From positions 16,530-80,529 of the forward strand of contig JAFGQZ010000043.1 of assembly GCA_016935435.1 (NCBI GenBank): a stretch of 64,000 bases of DNA, in the 5' to 3' direction. Under the pieces are notes generated by a model. That model was not told where the DNA came from and searched no databases. It was given only the letters and a program-made list of their open reading frames with translations. Positions 18,320 through 53,288 of the stretch are shown here, piece after piece (positions within the stretch are counted from its first letter, which is position 1; every line of letters begins with the position of its first letter). The DNA comes from Bacteroidales bacterium. Its GTDB lineage: Bacteria; Bacteroidota; Bacteroidia; Bacteroidales; UBA10428. Made by a program: the position numbers and the translations under genes.

Positions 18320-18493
18320 GGTTGGAAGTTCAAGGTTTAAAGTTTAAAGTTTAAAGTTCAAAGTTCAAGGTTTAAAGTTTGAAGTGAGCTGTGAACGGTG
18401 AACAGGGAAAAAAATCATACTTATCATTCATTAATTCTCTTCATTTTCTTCATTTTCTTCATTCACCTCAGCACCAGCCTCAACCTCAGCCTC
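18320..18493 (+). repeat. Composite dispersed repeat, copy 1 (8 heptamers + 37-bp core + 9-mer block + hexamer block)
   Basis: GGTTGG, 8 AAGTTYA-type units at 18326-18381, core AAGTGAGCTGTGAACGGTGAACAGGGAAAAAAATCAT at 18382-18418, TTCATTTTC units, ACCTCA-like units. Confidence 0.9.
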
Positions 18494-18519
18494 TAATTTG
18501 TTGCCGGAGCATTTAGGGA

Positions 18520-19032
18520 CTAAAGTACTTTTAATAATTTTGTGCATTTGTTTTTTAAGCCTGCAGAAGCATCTATTGTAACCGACTCCAAAATAGCCTT
18601 AAGTTCTGGTTTTATTTCGGGGTATTTTTTCACCACTTTGAAAAGTATATCAATAGAAAAAGCCCTTATTGCAATTGCTTCGCCAGGTTCGCTTGCAAAA
18701 CGGAAACAGATATCGGCAAGTTCGCCCAATTGTTCCTCATCGATAAATACCTTTGTTTCCAGAAGGACTTTAAGTGTACAACGTTTCACCCCATCGATTT
18801 TCGACTTTAACAAAGTGTTTATAAGTGTTTGAATGTGTGGCCTTAACATTTCGGGATATTTTTCGGCAGAAAGCTGAACAACCCTGGCCGCCCGCATCGA
18901 AAGCGGATATTTGTCTGCCAGCATTAAAGCCAATGCCTGGTCGAACAATTCCTGGCTTTTGCCTATGTTCGTCACAACAATGTCGGCAATAACTCTCGAC
19001 GAATCAATCAGTTGTTCTTCAATGGCACCCAT
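18520..19032 (-). CDS. Conserved hypothetical all-helical (HEAT/ARM-like) protein
   Basis: 170 aa; LSMRAARV, EAIAIRAFSIDIL, SAGLKNK pattern typical of small Bacteroidota HEAT-like proteins. Confidence 0.6.
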   Translation of the reverse strand: MGAIEEQLIDSSRVIADIVVTNIGKSQELFDQALALMLADKYPLSMRAARVVQLSAEKYPEMLRPHIQTLINTLLKSKIDGVKRCTLKVLLETKVFIDEEQLGELADICFRFASEPGEAIAIRAFSIDILFKVVKKYPEIKPELKAILESVTIDASAGLKNKCTKLLKVL

Positions 19033-19079
19033 ATTAAAAATTTTGTAAATTAGTTGCTAAAATTACATGATTTACCATT

Positions 19080-19346
19080 ATGATGAAAGTATGGACACCT
19101 ACCGAACGCGAAATAGAAAACACAAAGGCCTGGGGCAACTGGAGCAAAGAGGTTTCGGAATTTCCCTGGTTTTACGATGACCAGGAAACCTGTTTTATAC
19201 TTGAAGGCGAAGCCGAAGTAAGCGATGAGAAAGGCAATATAATACGTTTCAAAGCTGGCGATATGGTTCAGTTCGAAGAAGGCCTGGAGTGTGTTTGGAA
19301 AATTACAAGGGCAGTAAAAAAGCGGTATATTTTTGGCGAGGGATAA
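19080..19346 (+). CDS. Cupin_3 / EutQ-like cupin
   Basis: 88 aa; WSKEVSEFPWFYDDQETCFILEG, FKAGDMVQFEEGLECVW. Confidence 0.88.
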   Translation: MMKVWTPTEREIENTKAWGNWSKEVSEFPWFYDDQETCFILEGEAEVSDEKGNIIRFKAGDMVQFEEGLECVWKITRAVKKRYIFGEG

Positions 19347-19350
19347 AATT

Positions 19351-20799
19351 CTATTCTTTAATAATGATGGCCTCATAAGTAAATATTTCAGCATCGCGCC
19401 AGCCGTCCCAGCCTATGCCGGCTTTGTCGCGTGCACAATGGCCAAGGAACTCCTCCTTCGTCCAGTTGGTTTTAGCAGCAACCTGTGGCAAAAATGTGCC
19501 GGATTTAAAGTCTTTTTTGATATAAATCCCATGCCTTCCCAATTCTATATCGCCGGGATCAGAAATTTTCTTTAGGGGGGTGAGCACCGAAACTTCAATT
19601 GACATTTCGTTTAGTTCGTCACGGGTAACCGGAGAAAACCGGCCATCGAAAAACGCCGAAGAAACAGCCATTTCGGCAACTGTTTCGTAAAGCGGAAGGT
19701 TAGCAGCCTGCAAGCGGCCAATGCAGCCCCTCAGTTCATCCTTAATATACAGGCTCACAAATGCCCCGCAGCTTTCATTTAAAGCTGACGAAAAAACTGT
19801 ACCGGAAAATGTGGTTTTTTCCCTTTTTTCGAGGTATTCTTTTATAGCTTTCCTTGCAATGTTCAGAAGTTCTTTTTTTTCGGAATTTTTTAATTGAAAT
19901 TCTCCCGATATAGATTTTTGCGATACCGCAACCGACTGGTAGCCGACAACGCGCCCGCGATCGGCATTGCTCAAGGCATCTCCACTGTTTTGGTATAACA
20001 CCGGGTGGTAAACAACATCGTTAATGTTTTCGAGCATGTACATAAGGGTGAGTACCGCTGTCCAGCCACACATAGAGGTTGCCAGGTTTGGGATGCCAGT
20101 GTCGCTGTTGCGGGCCATTTGTTCCAGCAGTATTTCGGGTTTGCCGGTAAGCAGGGCATCGACAGTAAGTTTATCGGCCCTGTTTGCATCGTTATAGGGC
20201 GGATAGTGCGACAAATCGGTACTTACGACAAAAAGGTTTTCGGGTACCAGGTATTCGCGAAGTTCAAGGGCCAGGTTAAGGCATGTTTCTTTCTGATGTG
20301 TAGCCAAAACCACAGGCACTATCTCAAATTGGTCTTTCCAGAAATATTGCAGAAACGGGAGCATTACCTCAATGCTGTGTTCGTGGGCGTGTACCGAGTG
20401 AACAAATTCTATATAGCCCGATTTACCGATAATTTCATTGGCAAGGTGTGTATCGACTTTAACTTTTCCTAAAGGGGTAACATAATCGCCCACATTATAA
20501 ACCGAAGCCCCATTAAAATCGGCATGATGGCTAGAGCCCAGGATAAAAACTTTTTTGCGCGGCGGAATATTTTTCAGCTGCATAAATGCCGATGCTGCCA
20601 CTACTCCCGAGAACACATAGCCGGCATGCGGGGCAATGAGGGCAAGAAGGTTTTCGTTTTCGGGCAATACAAACCCTGTTAGCGAGGCAGCTTCTTCTGC
20701 CATATTCCCGATTTCGGTTTCGAGTTTACCGGCATGTGCCGAGTAGAACCTTCCGGCTGCTACAGGCACCCTATCGACATGAGAAGTATAAATATCCAT
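19351..20799 (-). CDS. amrB: AmmeMemoRadiSam system protein B (Memo) fused to protein A (AMMECR1)
   Basis: PVAAGRFY, APHAGY, EHSIEV, STDLSHY, MCG, then GAFVSL, LRGCIG, GTFLPQVA, KAG; ATG 20799 preferred over the track start. Confidence 0.9.
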   Translation of the reverse strand: MDIYTSHVDRVPVAAGRFYSAHAGKLETEIGNMAEEAASLTGFVLPENENLLALIAPHAGYVFSGVVAASAFMQLKNIPPRKKVFILGSSHHADFNGASVYNVGDYVTPLGKVKVDTHLANEIIGKSGYIEFVHSVHAHEHSIEVMLPFLQYFWKDQFEIVPVVLATHQKETCLNLALELREYLVPENLFVVSTDLSHYPPYNDANRADKLTVDALLTGKPEILLEQMARNSDTGIPNLATSMCGWTAVLTLMYMLENINDVVYHPVLYQNSGDALSNADRGRVVGYQSVAVSQKSISGEFQLKNSEKKELLNIARKAIKEYLEKREKTTFSGTVFSSALNESCGAFVSLYIKDELRGCIGRLQAANLPLYETVAEMAVSSAFFDGRFSPVTRDELNEMSIEVSVLTPLKKISDPGDIELGRHGIYIKKDFKSGTFLPQVAAKTNWTKEEFLGHCARDKAGIGWDGWRDAEIFTYEAIIIKE

Positions 20800-20929
20800 A
20801 GTACCCACAACTTTAGTTTTTAACAACCCTCTAAGTTACAATTTTATAAGGGTTGTAGTCAAGGCTTTATTGAAAAGAAAATACCGAAATGGAGCAATTC
20901 CCTGTATCGCAGAAATATACAGCAGCAGC

Positions 20930-23206
20930 CTACCTGTTCTCTTTTCTTTTACCAAAAATGCGCCGGATAAAATCGCCAATGCCATCGTTGGTTTTAATAA
21001 TTTCGAAAAACGTTTCGACAGGTGTTTCGCTATAATCGGCACACGATAACTTACTGTTTATATCGGCCGAAATATTGAATGAAGAACTTTGCATGTACTT
21101 ATATAACGGATCGCTATATATTTTTTTATGGAAACGGGCAAAAATGGGCATCGCTGCAAACGAGCCCTGGCCATAATATCCACGAAACCTTACCACGGGG
21201 CTGCCCCCACCTACCCACACACCCATAACCAGGTGTGGGTTCATACCAATAAACCAGCCATCGGCCTGCTCCTGAGTGGTTCCTGTTTTCCCGGCGAGTT
21301 CGCAGTCGAATTTCCAGAAATTGCGGAGGTTGTGGGCGGTGCCCCGGTCAACTGTGCCACGAAGCATGGCAAGAATAGTTTCGGCGGTTTCGGAAGACAT
21401 AACCGTATCGCCGGGAAGGTGCGCCGGGTCGGAATATACAAGGCGGCCTTGCGAATCCTCGATACGCCTGATAAGCCTTGGATTTATTGCCCTGCCCTTG
21501 TTCATAAAAGAACAATAGGCCACCACCATTTCGTATAGCGAAACCCCGCCAGTACCCAATGCCAGGCTGGGCACTGACGGGAGCTGGCTGGTGATGCCCA
21601 TTTTGCGGGCAAGGTTAATAACACTGTCGATACCGGTTTCCATAAGAATTTTTACGCTTACAGTATTTACAGATTTGGCCAAAGCGCCTTTCATAGAATA
21701 GAAACCCCCATATTTACCATCGGAGTTTTCGGGTGCCCAATTGTTATATGCTGTATAAACTATGCTGTCGTTGGCGTAAAACCGGCACGGACTGGCTCCC
21801 GATTCAAGTGCAGCGGCATAAACTATGGGCTTAAAGGTTGAACCTGCCTGCCGTTTCGATTTAACATGGTCGTATTTGAAATATTTATACCCCGAGCCGC
21901 CAACCCATGCAAGTATATCGCCGTTAAAGGGGTTCATTGCCAACACGCCTGCCTGCAGGGTCTTAAAATGGTACAGCACCGAATCGAGTGGGGAAATAAG
22001 TGTATCTTTATCGCCCTGCCAGCTGAAAACACGGGTTTGGCGTTTCTCATGCATGGCAACAAGGGCATCGTTGTAAGAATAACCGGCAGCCGATAATTCT
22101 TTGTAAGCATCGCTCTGTTTAATCTGTTGTCGTGCCAGTCCCGGGTCTTTTATCCAGGCTTCGCGCCCTTTCCATTGTTTATCGAACAATTCCTGTAGCT
22201 GCGCCATGTGTTCTTTTACCGACTCCTCGGCAAAAACCTGCAAGGTATAATTTACGGTAGTATATATTTTAAGCCCGTCGGAATAAATATTGTAGGGTGT
22301 TCCATCGGCTTTCTTTTTATCTTTCAGTATTTCTGTAACCTCGTGCCTGAGCTGTTCGCGCAGGTAGGGGGCAGGCCCTTCGTTATGGGTCAGCCTGCGG
22401 TAATTCAATTTTACAGGCAAGCCTTTAAGAGAATCGGCCTCCCCGGCCGAAAGGTGTTTATACTTGACCATTTGGCTTAGCACCGTGTTTCGGCGCATTA
22501 ATGCCGCCTCGGGCTTTGTCCGGGGGTTGTAGTTGCCGTTTGCTTTCAGTATGCCAACCAACAGTGCCGATTCTTCCATTTTTAATTCAGCAGGCTTTTT
22601 GCCAAAAAAAATTATCGATGCTGTTTCGATGCCAAAAGTATTTTCTCCAAACGACACGGTGTTTAAGTAGAGTTCAAGTATTTCGTTTTTTGTATAGTAT
22701 TTCTCGATGCGTTTTGCAATTATTATTTCACGCATTTTTGCCACAGGCAGGGTTAAAAACCCTAACCGCTTACGAGGATAAATGTTTTTGGCCAATTGCT
22801 GGGTAATGGTACTGCCACCACCGGCGCTGCGGTTAAAAAGCAAAACCGACTTAAACAGTACACGCAGGCTGCTGCGCGCATCGACACCCTTATGCTTGTA
22901 AAACCGGACATCTTCGGTAGAAACAAGGGCATTGATAAATCCTGCAGGTATATCGCTCAGGCTTGCATTTGATCGGTTTTCGAAATAATAGCGGCCTAAA
23001 AGCTTGTTATCGACCGACATGATGTCGGTTGCCGTGTTGTTTTTTATCTGTTTGAGGTCGGCCTCTTTGGGCATTTTGCCGAAAATCCCAAGCTGTACTA
23101 ATAAAAACAATAAAAAGCAAAACGATGCGATAGAAATTGCTGTGTATAAAAAAAACTTCGCGGTTACCCGTCGGAGTTGGGCAGTAAATTCATTTTGGGT
23201 TGCCAT
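20930..23206 (-). CDS. Class A penicillin-binding protein (PBP1A-like transglycosylase/transpeptidase)
   Basis: EDVRF, GGGSTITQQLAKN, GSTFKP, SVN, KTG motifs; N-terminal TM anchor. Confidence 0.93.
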   Translation of the reverse strand: MATQNEFTAQLRRVTAKFFLYTAISIASFCFLLFLLVQLGIFGKMPKEADLKQIKNNTATDIMSVDNKLLGRYYFENRSNASLSDIPAGFINALVSTEDVRFYKHKGVDARSSLRVLFKSVLLFNRSAGGGSTITQQLAKNIYPRKRLGFLTLPVAKMREIIIAKRIEKYYTKNEILELYLNTVSFGENTFGIETASIIFFGKKPAELKMEESALLVGILKANGNYNPRTKPEAALMRRNTVLSQMVKYKHLSAGEADSLKGLPVKLNYRRLTHNEGPAPYLREQLRHEVTEILKDKKKADGTPYNIYSDGLKIYTTVNYTLQVFAEESVKEHMAQLQELFDKQWKGREAWIKDPGLARQQIKQSDAYKELSAAGYSYNDALVAMHEKRQTRVFSWQGDKDTLISPLDSVLYHFKTLQAGVLAMNPFNGDILAWVGGSGYKYFKYDHVKSKRQAGSTFKPIVYAAALESGASPCRFYANDSIVYTAYNNWAPENSDGKYGGFYSMKGALAKSVNTVSVKILMETGIDSVINLARKMGITSQLPSVPSLALGTGGVSLYEMVVAYCSFMNKGRAINPRLIRRIEDSQGRLVYSDPAHLPGDTVMSSETAETILAMLRGTVDRGTAHNLRNFWKFDCELAGKTGTTQEQADGWFIGMNPHLVMGVWVGGGSPVVRFRGYYGQGSFAAMPIFARFHKKIYSDPLYKYMQSSSFNISADINSKLSCADYSETPVETFFEIIKTNDGIGDFIRRIFGKRKENR

Positions 23207-23427
23207 TTTGCAAGTTAGCCTGTTTAATTAACCCCGTGAAACCCATCGATAGCCCACGGTTTATGAATTTCATTTATTGGCCCTGTTATTATTGGCGGCC
23301 AACTTCCAAAGATACCGAAATGCCCAAAGTGAAATTAACAATTGGGTAAAAACAAATCAACAAAAGTTGGCATTCAAAAAAGTTTTCGGTTAATTTGAAC
23401 CAACCTCAACTTAGGCACAAAAAGTAA

Positions 23428-27017: not shown

Positions 27018-27187
27018 CAGCACAATTATTTACCCGGTTTCAATCTTCCTTCTAAATTTAGGGTTCAACCCCGGCAAAAAATGTCCCGGTTTTTTTTCGG
27101 TAGCCTGTATGATAAATACAATGTACAATACCCGGAGAAGGAAATTATGGAAGGGCAAAAAATTGTGGAGCAGTTTCTTGTGAAGGG

Positions 27188-28090: not shown

Positions 28091-28272
28091 TAAATTATTT
28101 TTCTTTTATCGGCAAAATTACATTTTATTCCCGGTTTTTTGCCTGCGTAGGTTTTAACATGCCTGGCCTCTGACAAATGATTTTCAGCAGCTATTTGACT
28201 GCAAATAAAACTTCATTATTTTTAACAAATGTTTTTGTCTGGTATTCTTAACCCTATTTAATATCCCTAGAA

Positions 28273-29262: not shown

Positions 29263-29328
29263 TACTTTTTACGGGTTCCAGGTGCATACATTTCATTATT
29301 TGTGCCTAATGTGCATTCTATGAATGTT

Positions 29329-29568: not shown

Positions 29569-29570
29569 TG

Positions 29571-35270: not shown

Positions 35271-35753
35271 ATGAGCACAAATTTTTATGAATTTAAGGCC
35301 CGCAGCCTTCAGGGAAAAGACATTCCGATGGAAGAATTCAAAGGGAAGGCAATTCTTGTTGTAAACACAGCCAGCAAGTGCGGTCTGACCCCGCAGTTCG
35401 AAGGACTTGAGAAGTTATACCAGCAATACAGGCAAAAAGGGTTGGTAATACTAGGTTTTCCGTGTAACCAGTTTGCCAACCAGGAGCCCGGCGACGATAA
35501 ATCGATATCTGAAGGGTGTTTATTGAATTATGGTGTAACATTTCCCATGTTTGCAAAAATTGATGTGAACGGCCCTGATGCCCATCCTATATATAAATAC
35601 CTGAAAAAGGAGTTAAGTGGTTTTTTGGGCAGCAAAATAAAATGGAACTTCACAAAATTCCTTATTGACCCGAAGGGTAAGCCGGTTAAAAGGTTTTCGC
35701 CAACCACCAGTCCGGGAAAGATTGGGCAATTTTTACAAAAAATGTTGAATTAG
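35271..35753 (+). CDS. gpx: Glutathione peroxidase family protein (Cys-type)
   Basis: [29 protein letters not shown]. Confidence 0.95.
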
Positions 35754-35972
35754 GGTTGGAAGTTTAAAGTTCAAAGTTTAAAGTTCAAAGTTTAAAGTTC
35801 AAAGTTCAAAGTTCAAAGTTCAAAGTTTAAAGTTCAAAGTTTAGAGTTTAGAGTTTGAAGTGAGCAGTGAACGGTGAACAGTTGAAAAAATCATTATTAA
35901 TACATTAATTAATTTCCTTCATTTTTTAATTATTTTCATTTTTTTTATTCACCTCAACCTCAACCTCAACCT
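35754..35972 (+). repeat. Composite dispersed repeat, copy 2 (14 heptamers)
   Basis: GGTTGG, 14 AAGTTYA-type units at 35760-35857, core at 35858-35894, degenerate TTCATTTT block, (ACCTCA)3. Confidence 0.92.
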
Positions 35973-41156: not shown

Positions 41157-41192
41157 CGAAGGGAATAAAAATGATTTTCAAGAATAGAGATT

Positions 41193-41335
41193 CAATCGTT
41201 TAGTTAACAATATTTCCTCACGCGCACCCCTTAATCCCCTAAAGGGAACAGCGCGTTTGAGGTTCCCCTTCAGGGGATTAAGGGGTGAGTGTAAGGGTTT
41301 CATCTATTACTTTTTTTCTTAACTAAACCACATTG
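41193..41335. mobile_element. MITE copy 1 (143 bp) with IS4-like terminal inverted repeats
   Basis: Ends CAAT--CGTTTAGTTAA / TTAACTAAACCACATTG; exact 10-bp flanking duplication AATAGAGATT at 41183-41192 and 41336-41345; internal perfect 16-bp stem. Confidence 0.9.
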
Positions 41336-41396
41336 AATAGAGATTGCAAAAGCTATGTTCCGCACTTTTTGGACAGCCCAAACAACAGTAAACAGT

Positions 41397-42323: not shown

Positions 42324-42557
42324 AATATATGTTGTTTTAGGATTAAACAGTTAAACCAAAAAAAAATAATAATTGAGCCTTTCAACGACTGTTTTCGACA
42401 GCCTTTTAAAGCCATATTTTCAGCAAGTGTCATACCTTGCAATACATCTATTGCCAGAAAAGGAGTTTATAAAACTTTCCATTAAACAGGCTATCGGGCA
42501 TTTATTGTACAAATATACTCAATAGCTTGAAAAACAAGCACGTTGCAGAAAAAAAAT

Positions 42558-43043
42558 CTACATCCGGTTTTGTCCTGGTTTTTTTTCGTGAATATAGCCA
42601 ATAATTCTTTGGACACACCCATCAAAGTCTTCTTTAAGCCCCTTTTCCCAAAAACGCATTACATGCCAGCCATTATCAATGAGTAATTGGTTGTTCTGCT
42701 TGTCGCGCTGCATGTTCCTTTCGATTTTTGGTACCCAGAAAGCACGGTTGGTTTGGATTTTTTCTTTCTTCTCCTGCCAGTTAAATCCATGCCAGAACTC
42801 ACCATCTACAAATATTGCCAGTTTGTATTTTGGATATACAATATCTGGCTTTCCGGGCAAAGAAGTTAAATTTTTTCTATACCGGTAACCAAGTGCCCAA
42901 AGCGCCCTTCTTAGCTTTAACTCTTGCTTTGTATTTTTAGACTTAATTTTTCGCATAAGCCCCGATCGCTGCTTTGTAGTGTAAAAGCCATTTTTTTCAT
43001 TAAACCTGGGCACAACTATATGATTGTCTGAATATTGCTTCAA
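42558..43043 (-). CDS. vsr: Very short patch repair endonuclease
   Basis: RSGLMRKIKSKNT, LPGKPDI, FVDGEFWHG, FWVPKIERNMQRD, GWHVMRFWE; adjacent to a C5 methyltransferase. Confidence 0.95.
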   Translation of the reverse strand: MKQYSDNHIVVPRFNEKNGFYTTKQRSGLMRKIKSKNTKQELKLRRALWALGYRYRKNLTSLPGKPDIVYPKYKLAIFVDGEFWHGFNWQEKKEKIQTNRAFWVPKIERNMQRDKQNNQLLIDNGWHVMRFWEKGLKEDFDGCVQRIIGYIHEKKPGQNRM

Positions 43044-43103
43044 AATTAATAATTGTTAATAATTAAAAGGCCAAATTAGGCTATTATGATTAATAAATAA
43101 AAC

Positions 43104-43144
43104 TAATTTTGTAACCATGTGTAATGTTGTTTAATGTGGTTACA
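43104..43144 (+). promoter_or_regulatory. MTase promoter with an overlapping inverted repeat (candidate autoregulatory operator)
   Basis: TAATTTTG at 43104-43111; TGTAACCA-N19-TGGTTACA at 43110-43144. Confidence 0.55.
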
Positions 43145-43146
43145 TA

Positions 43147-44379
43147 ATGGAAAAACTATATTCAATCTCGGAAGTTGCAGATTTACTTTCTGTTAGCAAA
43201 GAAACCCTGAGGCGCTGGGACAAAAGCGGGAAACTGACAGCAGTACGTGAGCCCATGAGTAATTATCGTGCTTATCGAAAGGATCAGCTTAAGATTTTTG
43301 AAAGCCTTGATTTTCTCTTTGCCCCAACAGAGGAAAATAATGAAACAATTGCAAACAGGGATTTTAACGCTATTGAATTATTTGCCGGGGCAGGCGGGCT
43401 GGCTATTGGGTTAGAAGAAGCAGGAATAAAGTGTTTGGCCCTGAATGAATTTGATCATTGGGCTTGCGAAACCCTTAGAAAAAACAAACCCAATTGGAAC
43501 GTTATTGAGGATGATGTTAAAAACATTTCATTTTCACAGCTAAACGGAAAAGTGGATATTGTAACCGGAGGCTTTCCTTGCCAGGCTTTTAGCTATGCCG
43601 GCAAAAAATTAGGGCTTAACGATGCACGGGGCACTTTGTTTTATGAATTTGCAAGGGTAGTGCAGGAGACAAACCCTGCAATTTTTATTGGGGAAAATGT
43701 GCGCGGTTTGCTCACACATGAAAATGGCAGGACGATAGAAGGCATGATTTCTATATTGGATGAAATTGGGTACAACGTAATAACCCCACGAATTTTTAAA
43801 ACAATCTTTTATAAAGTCCCGCAAAAAAGGGAAAGGGTTTTAATTGTTGGTGTAAGAAAAGATTTAAACCATCATTTGTTTGAATTCCCAAAACCCTATA
43901 AGAAAGTTTACACACTAAAAGATGCCTTAAAAAAAGGCGAATTGTATAATTGTGATGTTCCTGAATCGGCAGGCTCAAAATATCCCAAAAGCAAGAAAGA
44001 AGTGTTAGACCTGGTTCCTGAAGGAGGATATTGGAGAGATTTGCCCATTGAGATACAAAAGCGTTACATGGGAGGCAGTTACCATTTAGGAGGGGGCAAA
44101 ACTGGAATGGCAAGACGGATGAGCTGGGCAGAACCAAGCTTGACCCTCACTTGCAGCCCTGCCCAGAAACAAACAGAGCGTTGCCACCCGGAAGAAACAA
44201 GGCCCTTTACAGTAAGGGAATATGCAAGGATACAAACATTTCCCGACAGTTGGGTTTTTGCTGGCTCCGTATCGCAACAATACAAACAAATAGGCAATGC
44301 GGTGCCTGTTAATTTTGCTAAAGAAGTCGGATATTCAATTATTCGGTTCTTAAATAAGGTTTATCCTAAACAGAACTGA
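43147..44379 (+). CDS. dcm: Type II DNA (cytosine-5)-methyltransferase with an N-terminal MerR/excisionase-like HTH (Eco47II/Sau96I-like)
   Basis: SISEVADLLSVSKETLRRWD HTH; LFAGAGG, GGFPCQ, ENV, QKRER, QIGNAVP. Confidence 0.93.
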   Translation: MEKLYSISEVADLLSVSKETLRRWDKSGKLTAVREPMSNYRAYRKDQLKIFESLDFLFAPTEENNETIANRDFNAIELFAGAGGLAIGLEEAGIKCLALNEFDHWACETLRKNKPNWNVIEDDVKNISFSQLNGKVDIVTGGFPCQAFSYAGKKLGLNDARGTLFYEFARVVQETNPAIFIGENVRGLLTHENGRTIEGMISILDEIGYNVITPRIFKTIFYKVPQKRERVLIVGVRKDLNHHLFEFPKPYKKVYTLKDALKKGELYNCDVPESAGSKYPKSKKEVLDLVPEGGYWRDLPIEIQKRYMGGSYHLGGGKTGMARRMSWAEPSLTLTCSPAQKQTERCHPEETRPFTVREYARIQTFPDSWVFAGSVSQQYKQIGNAVPVNFAKEVGYSIIRFLNKVYPKQN

Positions 44380-44477
44380 TTTTTTCAGTTCAATAAATGA
44401 AATTCATATATAGAACAGGTTAAGGCTTAAAATATTTTTTATTTTTATGGTTTGTTTTCACATAAACCTTTAAGCCA

Positions 44478-45188
44478 ATGCCCTATTTAAATTGGATCCC
44501 AGATACAGGCCTGATTCATGAAGTAACACAATTGCTTTATATCGCTAAAAGCGCCCAAATATCGGCTATAAAGGAATTTGGCAAAAATGTAATTGACCCG
44601 TTTGCTGCCCTTTTTGAGATGTCGGGCTTTGAAATTGACTATACTACCTGGTTAAACAGCGAAACAACAAGACAGGCACAGAAAACACTACAAAACCATA
44701 TCGGCGACTTCCATCAAAACATACTTGGATATTCAAAAGACTGGACAAATAAGGGTGTAGGCAATATAATTGACTTGTTGTCGGATAAAAACAAGGTAAT
44801 AGCAGAAATTAAAAATAAATATAACACCATTTCGGGCGGAAAACTTTCCGATTTGTACTATTCCTTAGAAAAACAGGTAAGCCCAAAATCGAGCATTTAT
44901 AAGGGTTACACAGCATTTTATGTTGCAATTATACCTAAAAAGGGCGACCGGTACAATAAACCATTTACCCCTTCGGACAAGGACAAAGGCGAAAAATGCC
45001 CGGTAAATGAGCTCATCAGGGAAATTGACGGAGCAAGCTTTTACAGCCTGGTAACAGGTTCCGATACAGCTTTGGAAGATTTGTTCAACGTTTTGCCCGA
45101 TGTGGTAAAAGCATGTTCTGAGGATAAATATGTTATTAAAGACAAGAAAAAACTCAAAGAATTCTTTAACCTCGCCTATAAGCTTTAA
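44478..45188 (+). CDS. Type II restriction endonuclease, Eco47II family (predicted GGNCC)
   Basis: KNVIDPF, RQAQK...IGDFHQNI, IAEIKNKYNT; directly downstream of the C5 MTase. Confidence 0.8.
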   Translation: MPYLNWIPDTGLIHEVTQLLYIAKSAQISAIKEFGKNVIDPFAALFEMSGFEIDYTTWLNSETTRQAQKTLQNHIGDFHQNILGYSKDWTNKGVGNIIDLLSDKNKVIAEIKNKYNTISGGKLSDLYYSLEKQVSPKSSIYKGYTAFYVAIIPKKGDRYNKPFTPSDKDKGEKCPVNELIREIDGASFYSLVTGSDTALEDLFNVLPDVVKACSEDKYVIKDKKKLKEFFNLAYKL

Positions 45189-45189
45189 T

Positions 45190-48100
45190 TTAATCCCATA
45201 CCTCAACCACCTTCATGTTGGTATTAGCATTCACTACCGGTACATACATTAACGAAACCTGTGCCGGGTTCAGGTGATATTTGCCTGTAAAACGGGGCAA
45301 TAGGTTAACCTGGAAAATGTATTTGCCGGTTTTCATATTTTCGCAGAACAGTACTGTGCGGTCGCTGAAATATTCGCGATGGGTTTCTACACTGTTTTGT
45401 GCCTGTCGCTTGTCGGCATAGCTGCATGCCCCGGGTATGGGCACTTCTATCATAACATGCTCGGCGCCTGCATCTTTAATAACTTCCACCTCAATATTAA
45501 GCACAACGGGTTCTCCGGCTTTTAGCTTGTTGCTTCCCGAAAGAAAGGAAGTATGTATTTTAAACCCTTCAACCCCGGTTTTTGCCTGTGTAACCCTTTC
45601 GTTGGTGTACTGAACGAAATAGAGCGGAACGCCACTGCTTTTATACACACTTAGTTTCTCCTTTTCTTTCAGAACCATGCGAAAAGGGAATTCCGATACT
45701 GTTTTGTTTTCTTTTCCAGCAAGGGCTACAGTCGCTACCTGTCTTTTTGACGATCGCCCGGCAATTATGTCGGGCAAGATACATTGAATTATATTGGCCG
45801 ACTGGTATGTGTTCCATGTACCATTTTTTCGCTGGCCCAGGAAATACAGCTGCATGGAAGCGCGCAAACCATGCAGGAGAGTGTCGTTCTTTATTAACCG
45901 GTAGGCAGCTGCATTGGCCAAAAGTGTATTGTTGTGCCAATATGCCGATGGCTTGTTGTCGGAGAAAAAGATTTCGCCTAATATCCCTTCTTTTCTGTAT
46001 TTCAGAAGGCTGTCGCGTTCATAACCGTTCGCGGTTATCTGCCGTATTTCCTGCAGCATTAATTTCTCGGTAAGCAAAGAATACCTGTATTCATATTTTT
46101 GGCCATACGCATCGGAGAAAAATTCCTTTTCCAAAAGAAGCGAGTCCATCACCTGCAGATACTCGCCATAGTCTATTGCAGCGCCCCAGGTGGCCAATGA
46201 ATGAAGCAAATCGATATCGTAAATCGAGAACGATTTCAGGAAATCGAACTGGTAAGTCGCTTTCCGGGCAATGTTTTCGATGTTCAGAGGGACATCGTAA
46301 CCGGCATCTTTGGCACATTTTAATGCCCGGAGAATATGGGCTGACATCCAATGCGAAGTATTGCCCGTAACATTCCACCACGACCATAAAAACTCCCGGT
46401 TCTGGTTTTTCAGCAAGCGTTTAACAATATCGTTCACGTTTTTGTCGTATTTAAACGCCTTGCCTTCGTATTGCATCAAAAGCTTATAATTAATTAAGCC
46501 TACGAGTTTTGAGGCAAGCTGTTCGTTACAATCGTAACGGTAATGAAGCAGGTTATATGCCTCCCCTGCATAAATATCGAGCTGGCTGCTCAATATTTCA
46601 ACAGTAAGTGTTGTGTTTTCAGGTGCTTCGATATGCAGGCTGTCGCCATTTTGCAATACAGAAAGCGAACCTTCGGCCCTTTCGGTGCCCTGCTCAATTA
46701 CCCTGACGGTGCGTTCTTCGCCATCGGTATAGCCATCGTTGCGGGTAAATACATAACGTGTGGTAATTGAGTCGGCAGTTGCTGCATAAACCGGCAGTTT
46801 ATCGGTGCGATACTGCCCGAAAGCAACATTTCGAACAAAAGCATTGCCTGTACCGCTCCAGTTTACCGTTCCGGAAATTGTGCTGTCGGTAGTATAGTTT
46901 AACAATTTCCCCAGGAAAAAGGCCGAATCGCCCCTTGCAAGGAAGTTAGGAACATGGAGTTCTGCCATAAGTGGCTTGTACGATTTTATGGTCTTGCGTG
47001 CCGTGCCGGTATGAAGGTTGCGGTTCATGGCGTAAACTAAAGCGTCCCAGCGGGTAATATCATCGGGAAAGGTTACTGTAAATTTCGATTCGCCTTTTCT
47101 GTCGGTATATAAGCGTGGCTCCCAAAAGCCTACATCGGAAAACGACGATCGGATACTTTTTAGGTTCAGCAGTTCCTGGTAAAGCCTGTTTTCGGCATCG
47201 GTATCGGTTATATCTGTTGTTTTAGTTTCTTCATCCATTATGTCGGGAGCAATGCTGCTTTCGCCACTAACCCTCGAAACGGCTCCTGTTAGCATACTTT
47301 TATGTTGTACGCCATAACCGATTACAACAACCTCTTCGAGGGCAGAAATGTCGGGGGTCATCGACAACATTACTTCAGAACCTGCCGAAACTTCAATTTC
47401 TTCCATTAAATAACCGATAAAAGAAACCACCAGGGTTGCCGTAAAATCATCAATTTGCAGCGAGAAGCGGCCATCGATGTCGGTAATTGTTCCTTTCTGT
47501 GTCCCTTTTATTACAATACATGCTCCCGGCAGGGGATCATTGTTCTCATCGAAAATAATGCCGCGTATATTTCCCGGGCTGCTTGCCTGGATATATTCGT
47601 ACCTTGGCGAGGGTTTATTATCTGTGGCGTTACTGTAACAATTGTAATTTCGCCCCGGAAGGTTGAGCACCAATCGCGATGAAAACGTATCGGGCCGACA
47701 AATGGGCAAATAACCAAAGTCGGCAACCAGGGTTGAATGCCTGCTTATATCTACACTGTCCATTTGCAAATATGTGCCATTGTTGTATAAAACAATAATT
47801 CTGTAAAAACCCCGGGGCAAGGCGAAAAATTCGAGTTTGCTTTGATACTGGTTGTCGAAACAGGGCGACAGTATTGCTTTGCTCTCACAATTTTGAAAAT
47901 ACAGGTTGAATACCCCTTTGCCGGTAACCTCTTGGGGCAGTATAATTTTTATTCTCGATTCCGGGGCCACAATATCGATGGTTTGTGGCTGCCATATAAT
48001 GCCACCTGAAGCTTGCCGTTCAAGAAAGCGTTTTTTGTTCATAACCCGGTCGTTCACATTCAGCATGGGGTTGAATGGTTTGCCATCCAAATACCCAGGC

Positions 48101-50718
48101 AAAAGGTTCGAAGCCGTGAGCTTATACACAATATTGTCTTCAAAAGCATAAGAAAACCCTCCTGTATGGGTGTAAACTATCTGGTATGAGCCATTCAGGG
48201 AATATGTTTTCTTCCCCTGTAGTGAGGGGCCAATACTTAAGGTACCATAACTAGTGTACTTATTGTTATAAACATTATACAGTGGCAGAAACTCTTTTTC
48301 CGATTCCAGCCAGGCATAGCTGCCGTTGGAATAATTTACCGATGACATTAGAGGTTTGTAGCGGTTTCGCTCAACAGGGGTCAGTTGGTTCGAAAGCTTA
48401 ATTTCCTGAGAATATTTTTTCAGGCTGTTCATATCAAAACTAATAACGGTTTTCTTTCCTGCTTCGAACATCAAAGAGTCGAGCACAACAACCCTGTCGT
48501 TTAGCCGCAGGCTTATAGAATGTTTCTGGTTGGGGGAAATATAAAACGAATATTCTTTTGGCCTGTTGGCCCATGAAAAATATACGGGGTTGCGATCGAC
48601 TTCAATTACATAAATTGGAACGGCCATACCATTTTGCATAATGTAGGGGGCAAACTGGGTACTGTCGTTACTATCGAAAAGATAAACAAACGGCTCCCTG
48701 CCCGGATAGGTAAACTGGTAATAAATCATGGTGTCGAGCTGAAAGAGGTTATGCCATTTTTGGTAGTTTAGCTTAATAACTGCGGATCGGGAGTTTATGT
48801 CGTTTTTGGTAAAATGTGCACTTTTTGGCCGCGGTATCGAACTGCTTCCATAGTAGGGCAGGTCGGGCAAGTGGTAGTTAAGCTTACCGGTAACCGCCAA
48901 AGCAGTAAGATCGACCCCACTAACCGGATTTCCCAGCTGGTTGGTAACACGTATTTCCGCATCGATGGTTTGGCCGGGGTAAACCTTATCGGGAACGTTG
49001 AGGGTAACATCCAGGAACTCTTCCCTGAAAACAAAAGGGAAACGCTTTATTTGATCCTGTCCCCCGAAAGTGTAAATAAGTTCAACGTAATAAGTTTTCA
49101 GCCTGTTTTCTATGAGCGAACGAAATTCAAACTCTTTGCCAAAACCCTTCTTTAAAAGTTCCGCTCCCTGGTAAACATACCACGAAACATCGAGTTGATG
49201 AGGGTTAATGAGCGATATGTTAAAACTGTCTTTTTGTATTCCACCCGATAATTCAATTTTGGGGCTTATATGGGCCAGGTTAAAAATGCCTGATTTATAA
49301 TAACAGCTAAGCTTTATTGATGAAACCAGTGGGTTTATTTTTTCTTTATAAGGGAAAACTATGGCAAAACTGTCGGGATTGTTGTTGTAAGCAATACAGC
49401 CCGGCACATTTGTTAATGGTTCGCCGTTTTTTATGATGTCGAAACATATACTGTCGTTTGAAAGTTTGTTTATTAGTTCGTACTGCGAATAGAAAAAATC
49501 TGCCGAAACAGTTTGCTCCATGCGTTGGTACTGAGTGTTGAGCACAACCACCTGCACTTCGTACCCGGTATTCGACATCTGGAATAAACCAGGAAGAATT
49601 TCAACCGTGGTAGGTTTTGCCGGATCGAGATCGATTTGAAAATAACTCAATGTGTCGGGCAGTATGATAAGGGGCTGAAAAGTTTTTGAAATGTTCCTGG
49701 TGCGCACCAGAATAAAAGCTTTCGCATCTTTGAGCAACAATCCGTTTATGTCGGTTGCTGTAATGGTAATTTCGTTTTTTGCCGGAAAATAGTGTTTTGT
49801 GTTGGTTATCTGAACATTGAGTTTATTGCCGGTAAGTTCATAATCTTCGTACATAAAACTGCAATTTGAAACCATCTTACCGTTTTTTTCGCGCAATTGA
49901 AGGTTGTATGTCTTGTCCAGCACAAGATTAAGCGAATCGTGCAATTGTAATTCCCCGGCATAGCTGCCCGGCCTGTGGGGCTTTATCTTGTTGAGTTTAA
50001 TGTTTTTTTTATACCCCGACACCCATACTTCAAGCTCACGGCGCAGGGGAAATTTATTGCCCGACAATGCATACGATTTGAACCGCAACATATCGTTTGG
50101 CCTGTATTTGTTCTTGTCGGTAATTAAGTAACTATAGAACGAAGGGCTTTGGTAGTGGCTGTATGCGCTATGCCATTCCGGCACATCGTGCTTTACAATC
50201 TGGAACACCGACCGGAAACCGTCAAGTTCAACAGTTGCAAATTGATTTTTTGCATTGATCCACTCGTTTTCGAGCCTGTAAGTTTTGCTTTCGGGGTCAG
50301 GGCGCAGGCGTTTATATTTAAGTTTTACTTTTGCATCGGTGCGCACATTCCCACTGAAATCGGTTACCTGCAACGAAAGTGCCCCATATTCCCTGAACAG
50401 GAAAACCTGGTATGGAAAAACTCCCGTATAGGAGCAATGCAGCTTGTTCCCTTCAACCTTTACCAAAACAAAATGCCCTTTCGGGCAATGGTTTATCCAT
50501 CCTTTTTCAACTTCGAACGAATCGACCAGGTTATACAATAAACCATCGAAAACAGTATCGGGTTTTGCCCTTGTTAGTAACTTTTGTGCTTCTTTGTTTG
50601 TGATTTGAAAAACCAGTCCTTTTTGAGGTGCATTGCCCCAGTTAACCGGCTGGGAAAAAGAACTTAGGTGAATAAGAATAATATACCCTGCTGCAAATAT
50701 TCTGGAAATAGTTTTCAT
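45190..50718 (-). CDS. Bacterial alpha-2-macroglobulin family protein with an inserted carboxypeptidase-regulatory-like (SusC N-terminal) domain
   Basis: 1842 aa; TDKNKYRP (MG2), FWEPRLYTD..FPDDITRW (A2M), CNEQ thioester motif at 46519-46530, C-terminal EVPIPG/REYFSDR. Confidence 0.88.
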   Translation of the reverse strand: MKTISRIFAAGYIILIHLSSFSQPVNWGNAPQKGLVFQITNKEAQKLLTRAKPDTVFDGLLYNLVDSFEVEKGWINHCPKGHFVLVKVEGNKLHCSYTGVFPYQVFLFREYGALSLQVTDFSGNVRTDAKVKLKYKRLRPDPESKTYRLENEWINAKNQFATVELDGFRSVFQIVKHDVPEWHSAYSHYQSPSFYSYLITDKNKYRPNDMLRFKSYALSGNKFPLRRELEVWVSGYKKNIKLNKIKPHRPGSYAGELQLHDSLNLVLDKTYNLQLREKNGKMVSNCSFMYEDYELTGNKLNVQITNTKHYFPAKNEITITATDINGLLLKDAKAFILVRTRNISKTFQPLIILPDTLSYFQIDLDPAKPTTVEILPGLFQMSNTGYEVQVVVLNTQYQRMEQTVSADFFYSQYELINKLSNDSICFDIIKNGEPLTNVPGCIAYNNNPDSFAIVFPYKEKINPLVSSIKLSCYYKSGIFNLAHISPKIELSGGIQKDSFNISLINPHQLDVSWYVYQGAELLKKGFGKEFEFRSLIENRLKTYYVELIYTFGGQDQIKRFPFVFREEFLDVTLNVPDKVYPGQTIDAEIRVTNQLGNPVSGVDLTALAVTGKLNYHLPDLPYYGSSSIPRPKSAHFTKNDINSRSAVIKLNYQKWHNLFQLDTMIYYQFTYPGREPFVYLFDSNDSTQFAPYIMQNGMAVPIYVIEVDRNPVYFSWANRPKEYSFYISPNQKHSISLRLNDRVVVLDSLMFEAGKKTVISFDMNSLKKYSQEIKLSNQLTPVERNRYKPLMSSVNYSNGSYAWLESEKEFLPLYNVYNNKYTSYGTLSIGPSLQGKKTYSLNGSYQIVYTHTGGFSYAFEDNIVYKLTASNLLPGYLDGKPFNPMLNVNDRVMNKKRFLERQASGGIIWQPQTIDIVAPESRIKIILPQEVTGKGVFNLYFQNCESKAILSPCFDNQYQSKLEFFALPRGFYRIIVLYNNGTYLQMDSVDISRHSTLVADFGYLPICRPDTFSSRLVLNLPGRNYNCYSNATDNKPSPRYEYIQASSPGNIRGIIFDENNDPLPGACIVIKGTQKGTITDIDGRFSLQIDDFTATLVVSFIGYLMEEIEVSAGSEVMLSMTPDISALEEVVVIGYGVQHKSMLTGAVSRVSGESSIAPDIMDEETKTTDITDTDAENRLYQELLNLKSIRSSFSDVGFWEPRLYTDRKGESKFTVTFPDDITRWDALVYAMNRNLHTGTARKTIKSYKPLMAELHVPNFLARGDSAFFLGKLLNYTTDSTISGTVNWSGTGNAFVRNVAFGQYRTDKLPVYAATADSITTRYVFTRNDGYTDGEERTVRVIEQGTERAEGSLSVLQNGDSLHIEAPENTTLTVEILSSQLDIYAGEAYNLLHYRYDCNEQLASKLVGLINYKLLMQYEGKAFKYDKNVNDIVKRLLKNQNREFLWSWWNVTGNTSHWMSAHILRALKCAKDAGYDVPLNIENIARKATYQFDFLKSFSIYDIDLLHSLATWGAAIDYGEYLQVMDSLLLEKEFFSDAYGQKYEYRYSLLTEKLMLQEIRQITANGYERDSLLKYRKEGILGEIFFSDNKPSAYWHNNTLLANAAAYRLIKNDTLLHGLRASMQLYFLGQRKNGTWNTYQSANIIQCILPDIIAGRSSKRQVATVALAGKENKTVSEFPFRMVLKEKEKLSVYKSSGVPLYFVQYTNERVTQAKTGVEGFKIHTSFLSGSNKLKAGEPVVLNIEVEVIKDAGAEHVMIEVPIPGACSYADKRQAQNSVETHREYFSDRTVLFCENMKTGKYIFQVNLLPRFTGKYHLNPAQVSLMYVPVVNANTNMKVVEVWD

Positions 50719-50861
50719 GATTGCCGTTTTGTATCTGACAATTTTAAAAAAACAGCCCCCTAAAAACCGATGTTTTTTTTTAGTTTGTGCCTGACCCCTG
50801 AGTTATTAAGGCGTTTTTGCATCTTTGCGAAAAGCAGCCTTACAGATATATGTCGGGTTTT

Positions 50862-51509
50862 TTAAAAAGCGTAACCTAACGACAGCATTAGGGTAAAAGT
50901 ATCATCGGTAATTTCGCCGGCTGTCCTAAGCAGGCTTTCGTTCCATTCAGCTATTTTACTGAAATTCAGGTAGTAGTCGCCTTTCAGCCCTATCTGAATT
51001 TTGGAAATGTTTAACTTAATACCAGCTCCGAACAAGAGCCCATAGGCAATTTTTTTCAGTTCATCGTTTTTTTCCAAATAAGAAAAATCATCGCTGTGCC
51101 CAATCAAAAAATCTATCCTTGGGCCTCCGCAAATAAAGGGCAACACCTGTTCGGAAAGCGGATAATTAAAATCGATGGCAGTGTTAAAAGACAGGTAATT
51201 GAGAGTTGGTTTGTCAACAATTGTCTGGCCTGTGAATATGCCCCAGGGATCGGATAACTCTGATTCGGACTTTCCACCTTTCTGAAGGTAACCAATATTG
51301 GTTGTAAGGTTGTAGTTGCCATTCTTTAAATAATCAATCCCCAGAAAAAACGAGTTGCCTGTGAAGGCCATATCGTATAACTGATCATTGGTTGTAGGAA
51401 TTTTCCAATCGAGTTTTGAAATGCTTGTACCCACCTGTAACTTTATAACCTGGGCATTTAATGAACAAAAAACTGATACAAAAATAATTGAGGCAAGTAT
51501 TTTTTTCAT
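50862..51509 (-). CDS. Outer-membrane beta-barrel protein (PorT-like)
   Basis: Signal peptide from MKKILAS, amphipathic strands, terminal LGYAF; track start 51533. Confidence 0.75.
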   Translation of the reverse strand: MKKILASIIFVSVFCSLNAQVIKLQVGTSISKLDWKIPTTNDQLYDMAFTGNSFFLGIDYLKNGNYNLTTNIGYLQKGGKSESELSDPWGIFTGQTIVDKPTLNYLSFNTAIDFNYPLSEQVLPFICGGPRIDFLIGHSDDFSYLEKNDELKKIAYGLLFGAGIKLNISKIQIGLKGDYYLNFSKIAEWNESLLRTAGEITDDTFTLMLSLGYAF

Positions 51510-51625
51510 TGTTATTGCAAATAAGTCAGACATGATTGTTTATTGGCCAAATATAAGAAATATTCTGCCCTTTGAATTCTGCCTGCCAGCGTTTTTTTAA
51601 CGCCGAATATATTATTTATTATAAG

Positions 51626-51742
51626 TGCAAACGAATGCCTTAAAAACTAACAATAATTACGTTGAAAGTCTTAATTAACAACTAAAAACATATTTTAGAT
51701 ACAAGCAAACGATTGCATAATTTGTAAAAATATTTATATTTG
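51626..51742 (+). promoter_or_regulatory. Promoter of the T9SS cargo gene with two LacI/GalR-like operator candidates
   Basis: TTG 51713-51715, 19-nt gap, TATATTTG 51735-51742; TGCAAACGAATGC at 51626-51638 and AGCAAACGATTGCA at 51704-51717. Confidence 0.55.
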
Positions 51743-51840
51743 CATAACTGTTTTTCTCGCATTTTATAGAACAATACGGTTAAAAAAAGTCAGCCTTGCA
51801 AAATAGGCAGGCAAACAACAATTGATAAAACAATTTTACC

Positions 51841-52893
51841 ATGAAAAAAATCTACCCATTGATTCTGGCAACAATGTTTTGTACACAGCTTTTTGCCCAG
51901 AAAAGTATTTTATTTGTTAGCGCAAATGCGCCCGATGCCGATGCCACTATCCAAAAATTTATCGAACAAATTGAATCGATAGAAGGCTTTAGTGTAACCC
52001 ATAAACTTTTAGCCGACTACAAGCTTATGACTGCTGCCGAATTTGGGGCATTTGATGCGGCAGTTTTATCTGAGAACGGGGGCTCGGCCGATTATGTTAC
52101 GATAGGCAACGAAGGTTGGCCCATTGCGGTATTAAACCTGAAATCGTACATGAACCACAGGCCAACCAGTCCGCTTTATGCTGCCCAGGCCGATGTTGAC
52201 TGGTTTTTACACCGGACTTATGATATTGCTGCCGGTGCTTTGACTATGTATGTTGAAAACAACAACGATATTCTTTGTAATTATACCGAGGGCTCCGAAC
52301 TTGTGTGGTCAACCGGTACCGACGGCACCCCTTCCATAACCGATGCCCACTGCCAGACTTTCAACCTCGAAAAATCAACAGTAACCGATGTTGCCGGAAA
52401 TGCTATTTTGTTGGGGTCGATAAAAGAATTGAAAGACGGGGGCGAAAATACTTCGGCATTTCTCTGGAAAATAAACGAAAACAATACAACCAAACGAACT
52501 GTTTTATGGGGCATTCACCATGGCTTTATCGGAGAAGGGAATGCTACCGCCGATTTCTGGAAGGTGATCAAAAACTCAATTGTTTGGTTAACCGGCGGAT
52601 CGCCCTGCTCATCGACCGCACTAAAACCAGTTTTGGAAGAAACCAATGATATTACGGTATTTTGTTCATCGATTTCTAAATATGCCTCTGTTAACTTTAA
52701 ACTGAATGTACCGCAAACCTCTAACATTCAGGTAATGGATATTTCCGGAAAAATTGTTTATAGTCAGCTTTTAAATGGCAATGCCGGCTCGAACGAAATA
52801 TCCTTTAGCACCAATAGCTTTGCATGCGGCTTATATATTGTTAAACTAAGTGCAGGACACCAGATACTGACAGAAAAATTCATAGTACGATAG
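51841..52893 (+). CDS. T9SS type A sorting domain-containing protein, N-terminal domain unknown
   Basis: Signal peptide; C-terminal VMDISGK...GLYIVKL...TEKFIVR. Confidence 0.85.
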   Translation: MKKIYPLILATMFCTQLFAQKSILFVSANAPDADATIQKFIEQIESIEGFSVTHKLLADYKLMTAAEFGAFDAAVLSENGGSADYVTIGNEGWPIAVLNLKSYMNHRPTSPLYAAQADVDWFLHRTYDIAAGALTMYVENNNDILCNYTEGSELVWSTGTDGTPSITDAHCQTFNLEKSTVTDVAGNAILLGSIKELKDGGENTSAFLWKINENNTTKRTVLWGIHHGFIGEGNATADFWKVIKNSIVWLTGGSPCSSTALKPVLEETNDITVFCSSISKYASVNFKLNVPQTSNIQVMDISGKIVYSQLLNGNAGSNEISFSTNSFACGLYIVKLSAGHQILTEKFIVR

Positions 52894-52963
52894 AGTAAGA
52901 TTAGGATTAGTTGTGATTAGTTGTGGTTACTATTGGAAAAAATAGTACAGGATACAATTAGTT

Positions 52964-53005
52964 AAAAACGCTGTCTGATATACATTTAGGCAGCGTTTTC
53001 TTTTT
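52964..53005. terminator. Rho-independent terminator, probably bidirectional
   Basis: AAAACGCTGTCT...AGGCAGCGTTTT 12-bp stem with flanking A and T runs, between convergent genes. Confidence 0.8.
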
Positions 53006-53023
53006 ATTGCCAAACACGGGTAA

Positions 53024-53288
53024 TTAGGTTGTGGTTGAGAAGGGGTAAATGAAGGAAATGAAGGGAATTAATGAATGAAGGGAATGAAAGAAATGAAGTG
53101 AATTCATGAATGATAAAAATGATTTTTTCAACTGTTCACCGTTCATTGCTCACTTTAAACTTTAAACTTAAAACTTTGAACTTTAAACTTTGAACTTTGA
53201 ACTTTGAACTTTGAACTTTGAACTTTGAACTTTGAACTTTGAACTTTGAACTTTGAACTTTGAACTTTAAACTTTGAACTTAAAACCT
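53024..53288 (-). repeat. Composite dispersed repeat, copy 3 (18 heptamers), inverted orientation
   Basis: 18 TRAACTT-type units at 53156-53281, reverse-complement core at 53119-53155, GAAATGAAG-type 9-mers, GGTTGTGGTTGAG end. Confidence 0.92.

Follow-up and report, generated by a model that had tools for sequence, protein, structure and literature searches.

The stretch analysed here (hereafter the window) comprises 64,000 nt of contig JAFGQZ010000043.1 (C72) of the Bacteroidales bacterium assembly GCA_016935435.1 (3.94 Mb in 107 contigs, 41% G+C), and it contains three copies of a composite intergenic repeat that a first reading of the sequence (the original prediction) had described as a dispersed family of periodic blocks. 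Each copy carries a tandem array of the heptamer AAGTTYA, a 37-nt core of GTGAAC type that keeps the 7-nt phase of this array, a block of TTCAT-type nonamers and a final block of ACCTCA-type or degenerate hexamers (Table 1). Copy 2 separates the gene of a glutathione peroxidase from a MarR gene that starts 49 nt downstream of the element, and copy 3 follows the gene of a pyrimidine-dimer glycosylase. All three copies and their block order were recovered where they had been placed by the original prediction. The cores of copies 2 and 3 are one base apart, a match that did not occur in 100 shuffles, and the core of copy 1 is not within three mismatches of that of copy 2, which fits the four differences that had been claimed. 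Gene borders are those of our own longest-open-reading-frame calls, and the assembly is fragmented. The names carried by homologues of the glutathione peroxidase point to a Prolixibacteraceae/Draconibacterium-like member of the Bacteroidales.

The statement that every copy abuts the 3′ end of a gene was correct for copies 2 and 3, which begin at stop codons; copy 1 is reversed, with 27 nt separating its hexamer end from the stop codon of a minus-strand gene. Just past the end of copy 3, in the spacer of two convergent genes, lies a hairpin that the terminator scan scored for the plus-strand gene only. If this hairpin also ends the transcript of the minus-strand gene, copy 3 is located within the 3′ untranslated region of the latter.

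Table 1 Coordinates of the composite repeats and of other features in the window and elsewhere in the genome (positions without a contig name refer to the window)
Feature	Position	Strand	Remark
Copy 1	18320-18493	+	Composite between two minus-strand genes, in reverse orientation to local transcription
Copy 1, GGTTGG	18320-18325	+	
Copy 1, AAGTTYA x8	18326-18381	+	
Copy 1, 37-nt GTGAAC core	18382-18418	+	
Copy 1, TTCATTYCY block	18419-18464	+	
Copy 1, ACCTCA-type block	18465-18493	+	
Copy 2	35754-35972	+	Composite behind glutathione peroxidase gene
Copy 2, GGTTGG	35754-35759	+	Directly 3′ of glutathione peroxidase TAG stop (35751-35753)
Copy 2, AAGTTYA x14	35760-35857	+	
Copy 2, core	35858-35894	+	
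Copy 2, nonamer block	35895-35950	+	
Copy 2, ACCTCA x3.7	35951-35972	+	
Copy 3	53024-53285	-	Composite behind pyrimidine-dimer glycosylase gene
Copy 3, AAGTTYA x18	53281-53156	-	First unit overlaps TAA stop (53282-53280) of pyrimidine-dimer glycosylase gene
Copy 3, core	53155-53119	-	
Copy 3, nonamer block	53118-53047	-	
Copy 3, degenerate hexamers	53046-53024	-	
Hairpin	52965-52999		14 bp, GC-containing, flanking T/A runs
MITE copy	41196-41328	-	
MITE copy	53865-53999	-	
MITE copy	C53:10296-10432		
MITE copy	C75:154506-154640		Further copies at other sites
Methyltransferase region	42600-45200		
Cytosine methyltransferase-like gene	43147-44376		
Open reading frame	45190-50718	-	Uninterrupted, 1842 residues
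Y1 transposase-domain gene (IS200-like)	C53:44749-45180		Just upstream of a trmD-like gene
Reverse transcriptase gene	C4:48515-49135		RVT_1 domain, 471-residue frame

Anatomy of the composite family

Block A, the AAGTTYA array, occurs 51 times in the genome and comprises 3-18 units. Block B, of GTGAAC type, was counted 33 times, and block E, defined strictly by TTCAT-type nonamers (TTCATTYCY), 27 times; the reversed-sequence controls returned none of the three. These 111 block matches fall into 64 loci, at 29 of which at least two kinds of block occur together. The expectation of a dispersed intergenic family with many copies was thus borne out. In nearly all composite loci the order is constant: the A units are followed by B, by optional GATTTG octamers (C), by an AT-rich core (D, for example GATGTGCCAATTATTAATT), by the E nonamers and finally by AACCTC hexamers (F), so that periods of 7, 7, 8, 9 and 6 nt succeed each other within one element. 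The length of complete elements ranges over 69-328 bp (median 193 bp). They are strongly polar, the 5′ half containing 19.5% G and 8.8% C and the 3′ half 2.8% G and 27.1% C, and the E and F blocks make up ~14 of the 20 longest G-free tracts of the genome. As the original prediction had stated, no open reading frame was found within the composites; the Rfam check that it had proposed gave 0 matches at gathering score across the whole window. A block is present at 10 of 214 contig ends, compared with 0.6% of random windows; both the copy number and the lengths of the arrays are therefore underestimated, and heptamer arrays evidently break short-read assemblies, which is of practical importance.

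Location behind stop codons

An element usually starts where an intact same-strand gene upstream of it has its stop codon. Among the 48 A arrays with a scorable upstream neighbour, this gene was on the same strand in 32 cases, with the stop codon mostly -3 to +22 nt from the start of the array. Where a complete element follows a gene on its own strand (14 cases), the spacer on the upstream side has a median of 7.5 nt and that on the downstream side one of 64.5 nt (KS p = 9e-4), and 6 of the 14 upstream genes end in TAG, a stop codon used by 17.6% of genes genome-wide. About 26 array units read TAGTTYA, and at 8 loci their TAG doubles as the stop codon. The upstream proteins are intact, matching full-length NCBIfam profiles to the last position or to within a few residues of it. 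By type of spacer, 31 A arrays were co-directional (20 forward, 11 reverse), 9 convergent and 3 divergent, compared with approximately 26, 8 and 9 expected. The elements fill most of each spacer, and the flanking genes are functionally unrelated. Orientation relative to the genes is thus weakly biased, closeness to 3′ ends strongly so.

Spread as a unit and lineage-restricted distribution

Several sub-families have cores that are 80-100% identical over 60-143 bp at unrelated sites, with the similarity stopping at the edges of the element. Examples are copies on contigs C53, C61 and C67 (89-100% over 60-115 bp), the three copies in the window, and two copies on C68 with GTTAAC units found nowhere else. 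Since these non-repeat cores are common to unrelated sites, a defined element has been copied, as the original prediction had proposed, rather than microsatellites having been born independently. Two sub-families each cluster on a single contig, which hints at local spread or gene conversion. The proposed change in length by slippage was likewise supported: array length and unit composition vary by locus, and the mix of unit variants differs from array to array (chi-square p = 7e-7), as expected from local slippage after insertion.

The family is narrowly distributed. A three-unit AAGTTYA pattern gave 182 matches in this genome and at most 2 in each of 24 genomes of the same genus, and a four-unit pattern gave 139 matches compared with at most 11 in any of 400 other genomes sampled from the phylum. 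The non-repeat core and the nonamer block were absent from the relatives, rare or at chance level. The pair of glutathione peroxidase and MarR genes (gpx-marR) around copy 2 is kept in six genomes of the same genus, where a unique spacer of 23-115 nt, in which no element was found, takes the place of the 270 nt present here. No closer strain that might offer empty sites was found in the collections searched by exact-protein look-up and metagenome scan; the nearest glutathione peroxidase homologue is at most 81% identical, and the metagenome scan matched only a locally conserved methyltransferase island without arrays.

Blocks shared with PF05635 cassettes

The genome encodes four proteins of family PF05635 (‘23S rRNA intervening-sequence protein’, S23p, a four-helix bundle), and at least three of the four genes are directly flanked by blocks of the composite family, namely AAGTTCA and its complement, GTGAAT/ATTCAC, and TTCATTYCY. 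On contig C106, a TAGTTCA unit supplies the TAG stop of a V-type ATPase B gene, exactly as seen for the composites. This unit is followed by ~4 A units, the PF05635 gene begins 5 nt past them, and at least 11 complementary TGAACTT units follow the gene. In the predicted fold of this cassette, a perfect 31-bp AAGTTCA/TGAACTT stem encloses the gene (z = -4.5). The PF05635 gene on C60 is bracketed by GTGAAT-type and ATTCAC-type units, that on C6 has eight TTCATTYCY units immediately 3′ of its stop codon, and that on C4 is preceded just upstream by a TTGGAG/CTCCAA hairpin built of other hexamers. For all genes of the genome, the frequency of an array with a period of 6-9 within 120 nt is 5.3%.

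This arrangement extends to related bacteria. PF05635 genes, 1-16 in each, occur in 37 of 41 relatives; at 18 of 28 loci from these genomes a strict array lies within 200 nt, and at 24 of the 28 the GC skew is higher upstream (G-rich) than downstream (C-rich). The two flanks of these 28 loci pair at -75 kcal/mol, compared with -56 kcal/mol if one flank is reversed (p = 2.5e-7). GTGAAC arrays were present in 9 of 40 relatives (2 for the control) and flank a PF05635 gene in one genome of the same genus (locus L284).

A connection between such cassettes and RNA processing is described for Coxiella, in which RNase III excises a PF05635-bearing intervening sequence from the 23S rRNA, a selfish element that is cut out of the host transcript (Warrier 2016, PMC4990558). 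The composite differs in sitting between protein-coding genes and not in rRNA. Furthermore, a resemblance to S23 proteins has been described for the Avd protein of diversity-generating retroelements (bioRxiv 10.1101/2023.10.23.563531). In the library searched, we found no paper that links heptamer arrays to PF05635 genes.

Predicted RNA structure

In the composites, the last A units are predicted to pair with block B (GUUCA with UGAAC), giving helices of 5 bp with 2x2 loops between them. The tail of A together with B folds at -16.7 kcal/mol, compared with -9.9 kcal/mol when B is reversed and -11.3 kcal/mol when it is shuffled (p = 5e-4). One full composite is predicted to fold into two hairpins, the first formed by A and B and the second by GGTTGG and C with E and F (z = -2.6). 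The claim that terminal inverted repeats are absent needs some correction: at the termini, nothing beyond a 5-6-nt candidate was seen, but the GTGAAC block partly complements the AAGTTCA block, and pairing is predicted between the GGTTGG motif and the AACCTC block. A single long fold-back of the whole element was rejected, as the pairing of one half with the other was no better than in the reversed and shuffled controls.

Origin of the composite

We see a roughly even chance that the composite, an element of 150-330 bp present at about 64 loci, is a gene-less, rearranged, non-autonomous derivative of the arms of PF05635 cassettes that underwent a burst in one species. This reading follows from the blocks, the polarity and the junction with the stop codon that composites and cassettes share. 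Parent cassettes would insert behind a host gene and so be co-transcribed with it, and their arms would pair into a long stem of double-stranded RNA open to cleavage by RNase III; by analogy with the Coxiella intervening sequence, the parents probably rely on both host co-transcription and cleavage of the arm stem. Once the gene had been lost, the composite would have remained and spread, mainly as selfish or neutral spacer DNA in which arrays grow and shrink by replication slippage. The gene-less copies may thus be neutral passengers with side effects on the processing or stability of mRNA 3′ ends. Among the roles considered in the original prediction, RNA processing best fits the link to the PF05635 cassettes.

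Several observations weigh against this origin. The composites contain neither a gene between arms, as is found in the four true cassettes at other loci, nor complementary arms that form one stem as those of true cassettes do, although repeat units and the G-rich 5′/C-rich 3′ polarity are shared. No remnant of a PF05635 gene was detected inside the composites by tblastn. The 5′ and 3′ halves pair at -7.7 kcal/mol, compared with -8.3 kcal/mol for the reversed and -8.1 kcal/mol for the shuffled control; because the halves are no more complementary than these controls, the composite is not simply a cassette minus its gene. Covariation of C/T with G/A between AAGTTYA and GTGAAC units was not found (rho 0.2-0.27, not significant), and with fold z-scores of -3.95, -0.58 and -1.18 the predicted structure is weak for two of the three copies in the window. 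This genome has only four PF05635 genes, and relatives with up to 16 of them show no burst of the AAGTTYA composite family. Finally, 11 of the 31 A arrays between co-directional genes are reversed, so that a role purely as sense RNA cannot hold for all copies.

A wider and distinctly improbable extension is that the heptamer families seen across bacteria are the arms and gene-less offspring of one widespread PF05635 (Avd-like) selfish cassette. Such a cassette would land right behind stop codons and thus be transcribed along with the host gene, RNase III would cut the arm stem and thereby free the cassette's own mRNA, and the Avd-like protein, perhaps together with a reverse transcriptase, would copy the arm RNA into DNA, with repeated 7-nt templating generating the arrays; the composite would then represent a burst caught midway. 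The likeness between Avd and S23 proteins keeps a retro-copying route open, but nothing in the present analysis supports it. A reverse transcriptase as the mover of the composites was rejected, as the genome has one copy of such a gene, which is sporadic in the relatives and does not correlate with the family.

Alternative explanations

An unlikely alternative to a cassette origin is that the composite is a functional 3′-end module, in which a hairpin and a long G-free, C-containing tract load Rho and end or attenuate transcription. The composition of the 3′ half and the long tracts provided by E and F would suit such a site, and the elements start at stop codons, where untranslated RNA is first exposed. 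Canonical intrinsic terminators are also scarce: within 150 nt of the stop, only 13.7% of genes possess one, so that transcription must mostly end by other means. An intrinsic terminator (a GC-rich stem of at least 5 pairs and a T run) as the nature of the composite was rejected, since none lies inside the 24 complete elements and only 2 of these are followed by one in the next 150 nt. However, spacers between co-directional genes generally contain C and G at near-equal levels (16.1% and 15.1%), which speaks against a general trend toward Rho sites, and 24 genomes of the same genus do without the composite family. Copy 2 is located inside the conserved gpx-marR pair, and no plus-strand promoter-like site was called in the interval from it to marR, so that strong termination at this point would silence the latter gene. 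The reversed arrays between co-directional genes argue in the same direction. A promoter within the core was also considered and rejected; sigma-70-like matches were no more frequent than in shuffles, with a consensus that is not applicable to Bacteroidota.

Movement as a classical non-autonomous transposon, that is, a miniature inverted-repeat transposable element (MITE) or a repetitive extragenic palindrome (REP)-like element mobilised, for instance, by the genome's single Y1 (IS200-like) protein, appears quite improbable. It would explain the copy-and-paste spread of unique cores, the elements have a short possible terminal inverted repeat (5′ TAGTT/GGTTG, 3′ CAACC/AACCT), one Y1_Tnp gene is present, and Y1 enzymes require neither long terminal repeats nor target duplications. 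Yet the candidate terminal repeat spans just 5-6 nt and no target-site duplication was seen, in agreement with the original prediction. The Y1 protein was rejected as the mover, as 35 of 41 relatives have homologues of it, yet the relatives are almost devoid of the composite family. No arrays were seen within ~450 nt of the Y1 gene, and a true MITE with 9-10-bp duplications in the same genome looks quite different. The repeat is therefore not a classical MITE, as had been proposed, given that terminal inverted repeats of ~10 bp or more and a target-site duplication define that class. Nor does it belong to the REP/REPIN class mobilised by REP-associated tyrosine transposases (RAYT), because its units are tandem arrays, not imperfect REP palindromes of 20-40 nt, and no arrays were seen near the single Y1_Tnp gene. 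A clustered regularly interspaced short palindromic repeats (CRISPR) array, in which direct repeats of 24-48 nt alternate with unique spacers and which had also been dismissed, is incompatible with units of 6-9 nt that stand head to tail without spacers.

We consider it very unlikely that the composite is a DNA-binding array for a nucleoid-associated or regulatory protein that reads GTTCA/TGAAC and TTCAT at 7- or 9-bp spacing. The AAGTTYA block indeed contains GTTCA in direct orientation and the GTGAAC block contains it inverted, TTCAT recurs in the nonamer block, and most of each spacer is occupied. But no candidate protein is specific to this genome, the number of units ranges from 3 to 18 while their sequence drifts by locus, the neighbouring genes have no function in common, close relatives lack the composite family, and the arrays are depleted from divergent promoter regions. 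Least probable are independent microsatellites born in place by slippage without any mobility. Compatible with them would be that, among 400 other genomes sampled from the phylum, 6 carry AAGTTYA x4 arrays and 4 carry those of the reversed heptamer, that x5 arrays occur in many other phyla, and that arrays are homogenised locus by locus, but five or six blocks stand in identical order at 29 loci, the 139 four-unit matches here far exceed those of any sampled genome, and the common non-repeat cores largely refute this explanation.

Comparison with known dispersed repeats

Dispersed heptamer repeats have been known since 1990, when Mazel reportedly described those of cyanobacteria as short tandemly repeated repetitive (STRR) sequences, and neither a function nor a means of spread has been established for them. 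In the composite family, arrays travel with non-repeat cores in a fixed order, which makes their spread traceable as the copying of a defined element, and a candidate parent, the PF05635 genes bracketed by its blocks, leads to a testable mechanism at the RNA level, namely a stem cut by RNase III. Further heptamer repeats are GGGAATC in Xanthomonas and GGGGA(C/T)T in Nostoc, which show a preference for the sense strand within ~50 bp of stop codons and are depleted between divergent genes (Rehm 2015, PMC4692102). Beggiatoaceae, cyanobacteria and five Bacteroidetes carry TAACTGA repeats; in Gramella, Aequorivita and Elizabethkingia, ‘assemblages of heptamer repeats’ were recorded, but no fixed composite was reported (MacGregor 2015, PMC4679880). 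The arrays described here belong to this kind: a 7-nt unit (at least 3 per array) is tandemly repeated between genes at tens to hundreds of sites, far above chance, close to stop codons, with aligned and convergent spacers preferred and divergent ones depleted, in variable unit number and with a patchy, lineage-specific distribution. They differ in that five to six blocks and a non-repeat core move together in fixed order, and in the AT-rich AAGTTYA unit, which cannot form a G-quadruplex. The kind is thus already known, whereas the fixed multi-block composite is new.

Short, gene-less, modular repeats that lie after stop codons or inside operons, are transcribed and form hairpins are also represented by REP and bacterial interspersed mosaic elements (BIME) of enterobacteria and by BOX elements of Streptococcus pneumoniae, the latter with one internal module in variable number. 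The composite resembles them in its modular, gene-less organisation and its location behind stops. It differs from them because their modules are palindromic or unique sequences of 20-60 nt and not microsatellite-like arrays, and REP are tied to RAYT transposases, of which there was no sign here.

AAGTTCA itself was rejected as a special pan-bacterial motif. Its x4 frequency in the phylum is similar to that of the reversed heptamer, which indicates that it arises repeatedly like other heptamers. At least 117 stretches carry AAGTTYA x5 arrays; they come from Acidobacteriota, Verrucomicrobiota, Planctomycetota, candidate-phyla-radiation bacteria, cyanobacteria and others (loci L129-L208). Some of these contigs have 60-70% G+C, and in many cases a TGAACTT array follows after a short loop, resulting in long hairpins. 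In one acidobacterial stretch (L185) the array is located upstream of an apparent ribosomal protein S11 gene.

Other features of the window and the genome

The genome's only reverse transcriptase gene (Table 1) lies ~7 kb from the PF05635 gene of the same contig, and the Y1 gene on C53 looks domesticated, not mobile. The methyltransferase-like gene in the window and its neighbours show 86-89% protein identity to several unrelated metagenome contigs. At the DNA level the similarity is confined to the part between about 42.6 and 45.2 kb, so that this region looks like a small horizontally moving island.

The MITE family mentioned above is ~137-165 bp long and has ~20 copies (34 BLAST segments). 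Its ends read TCAATGYCGTTTAGTTAAC, a GC-rich hairpin lies inside it, and its target duplications measure 9-10 bp. Several copies are located inside or beside heptamer arrays of the AATTCAC type, and three lie inside composites (C52, C53, C94). This nesting recalls Nostoc, in which small dispersed repeats are nested in heptamer repeats.

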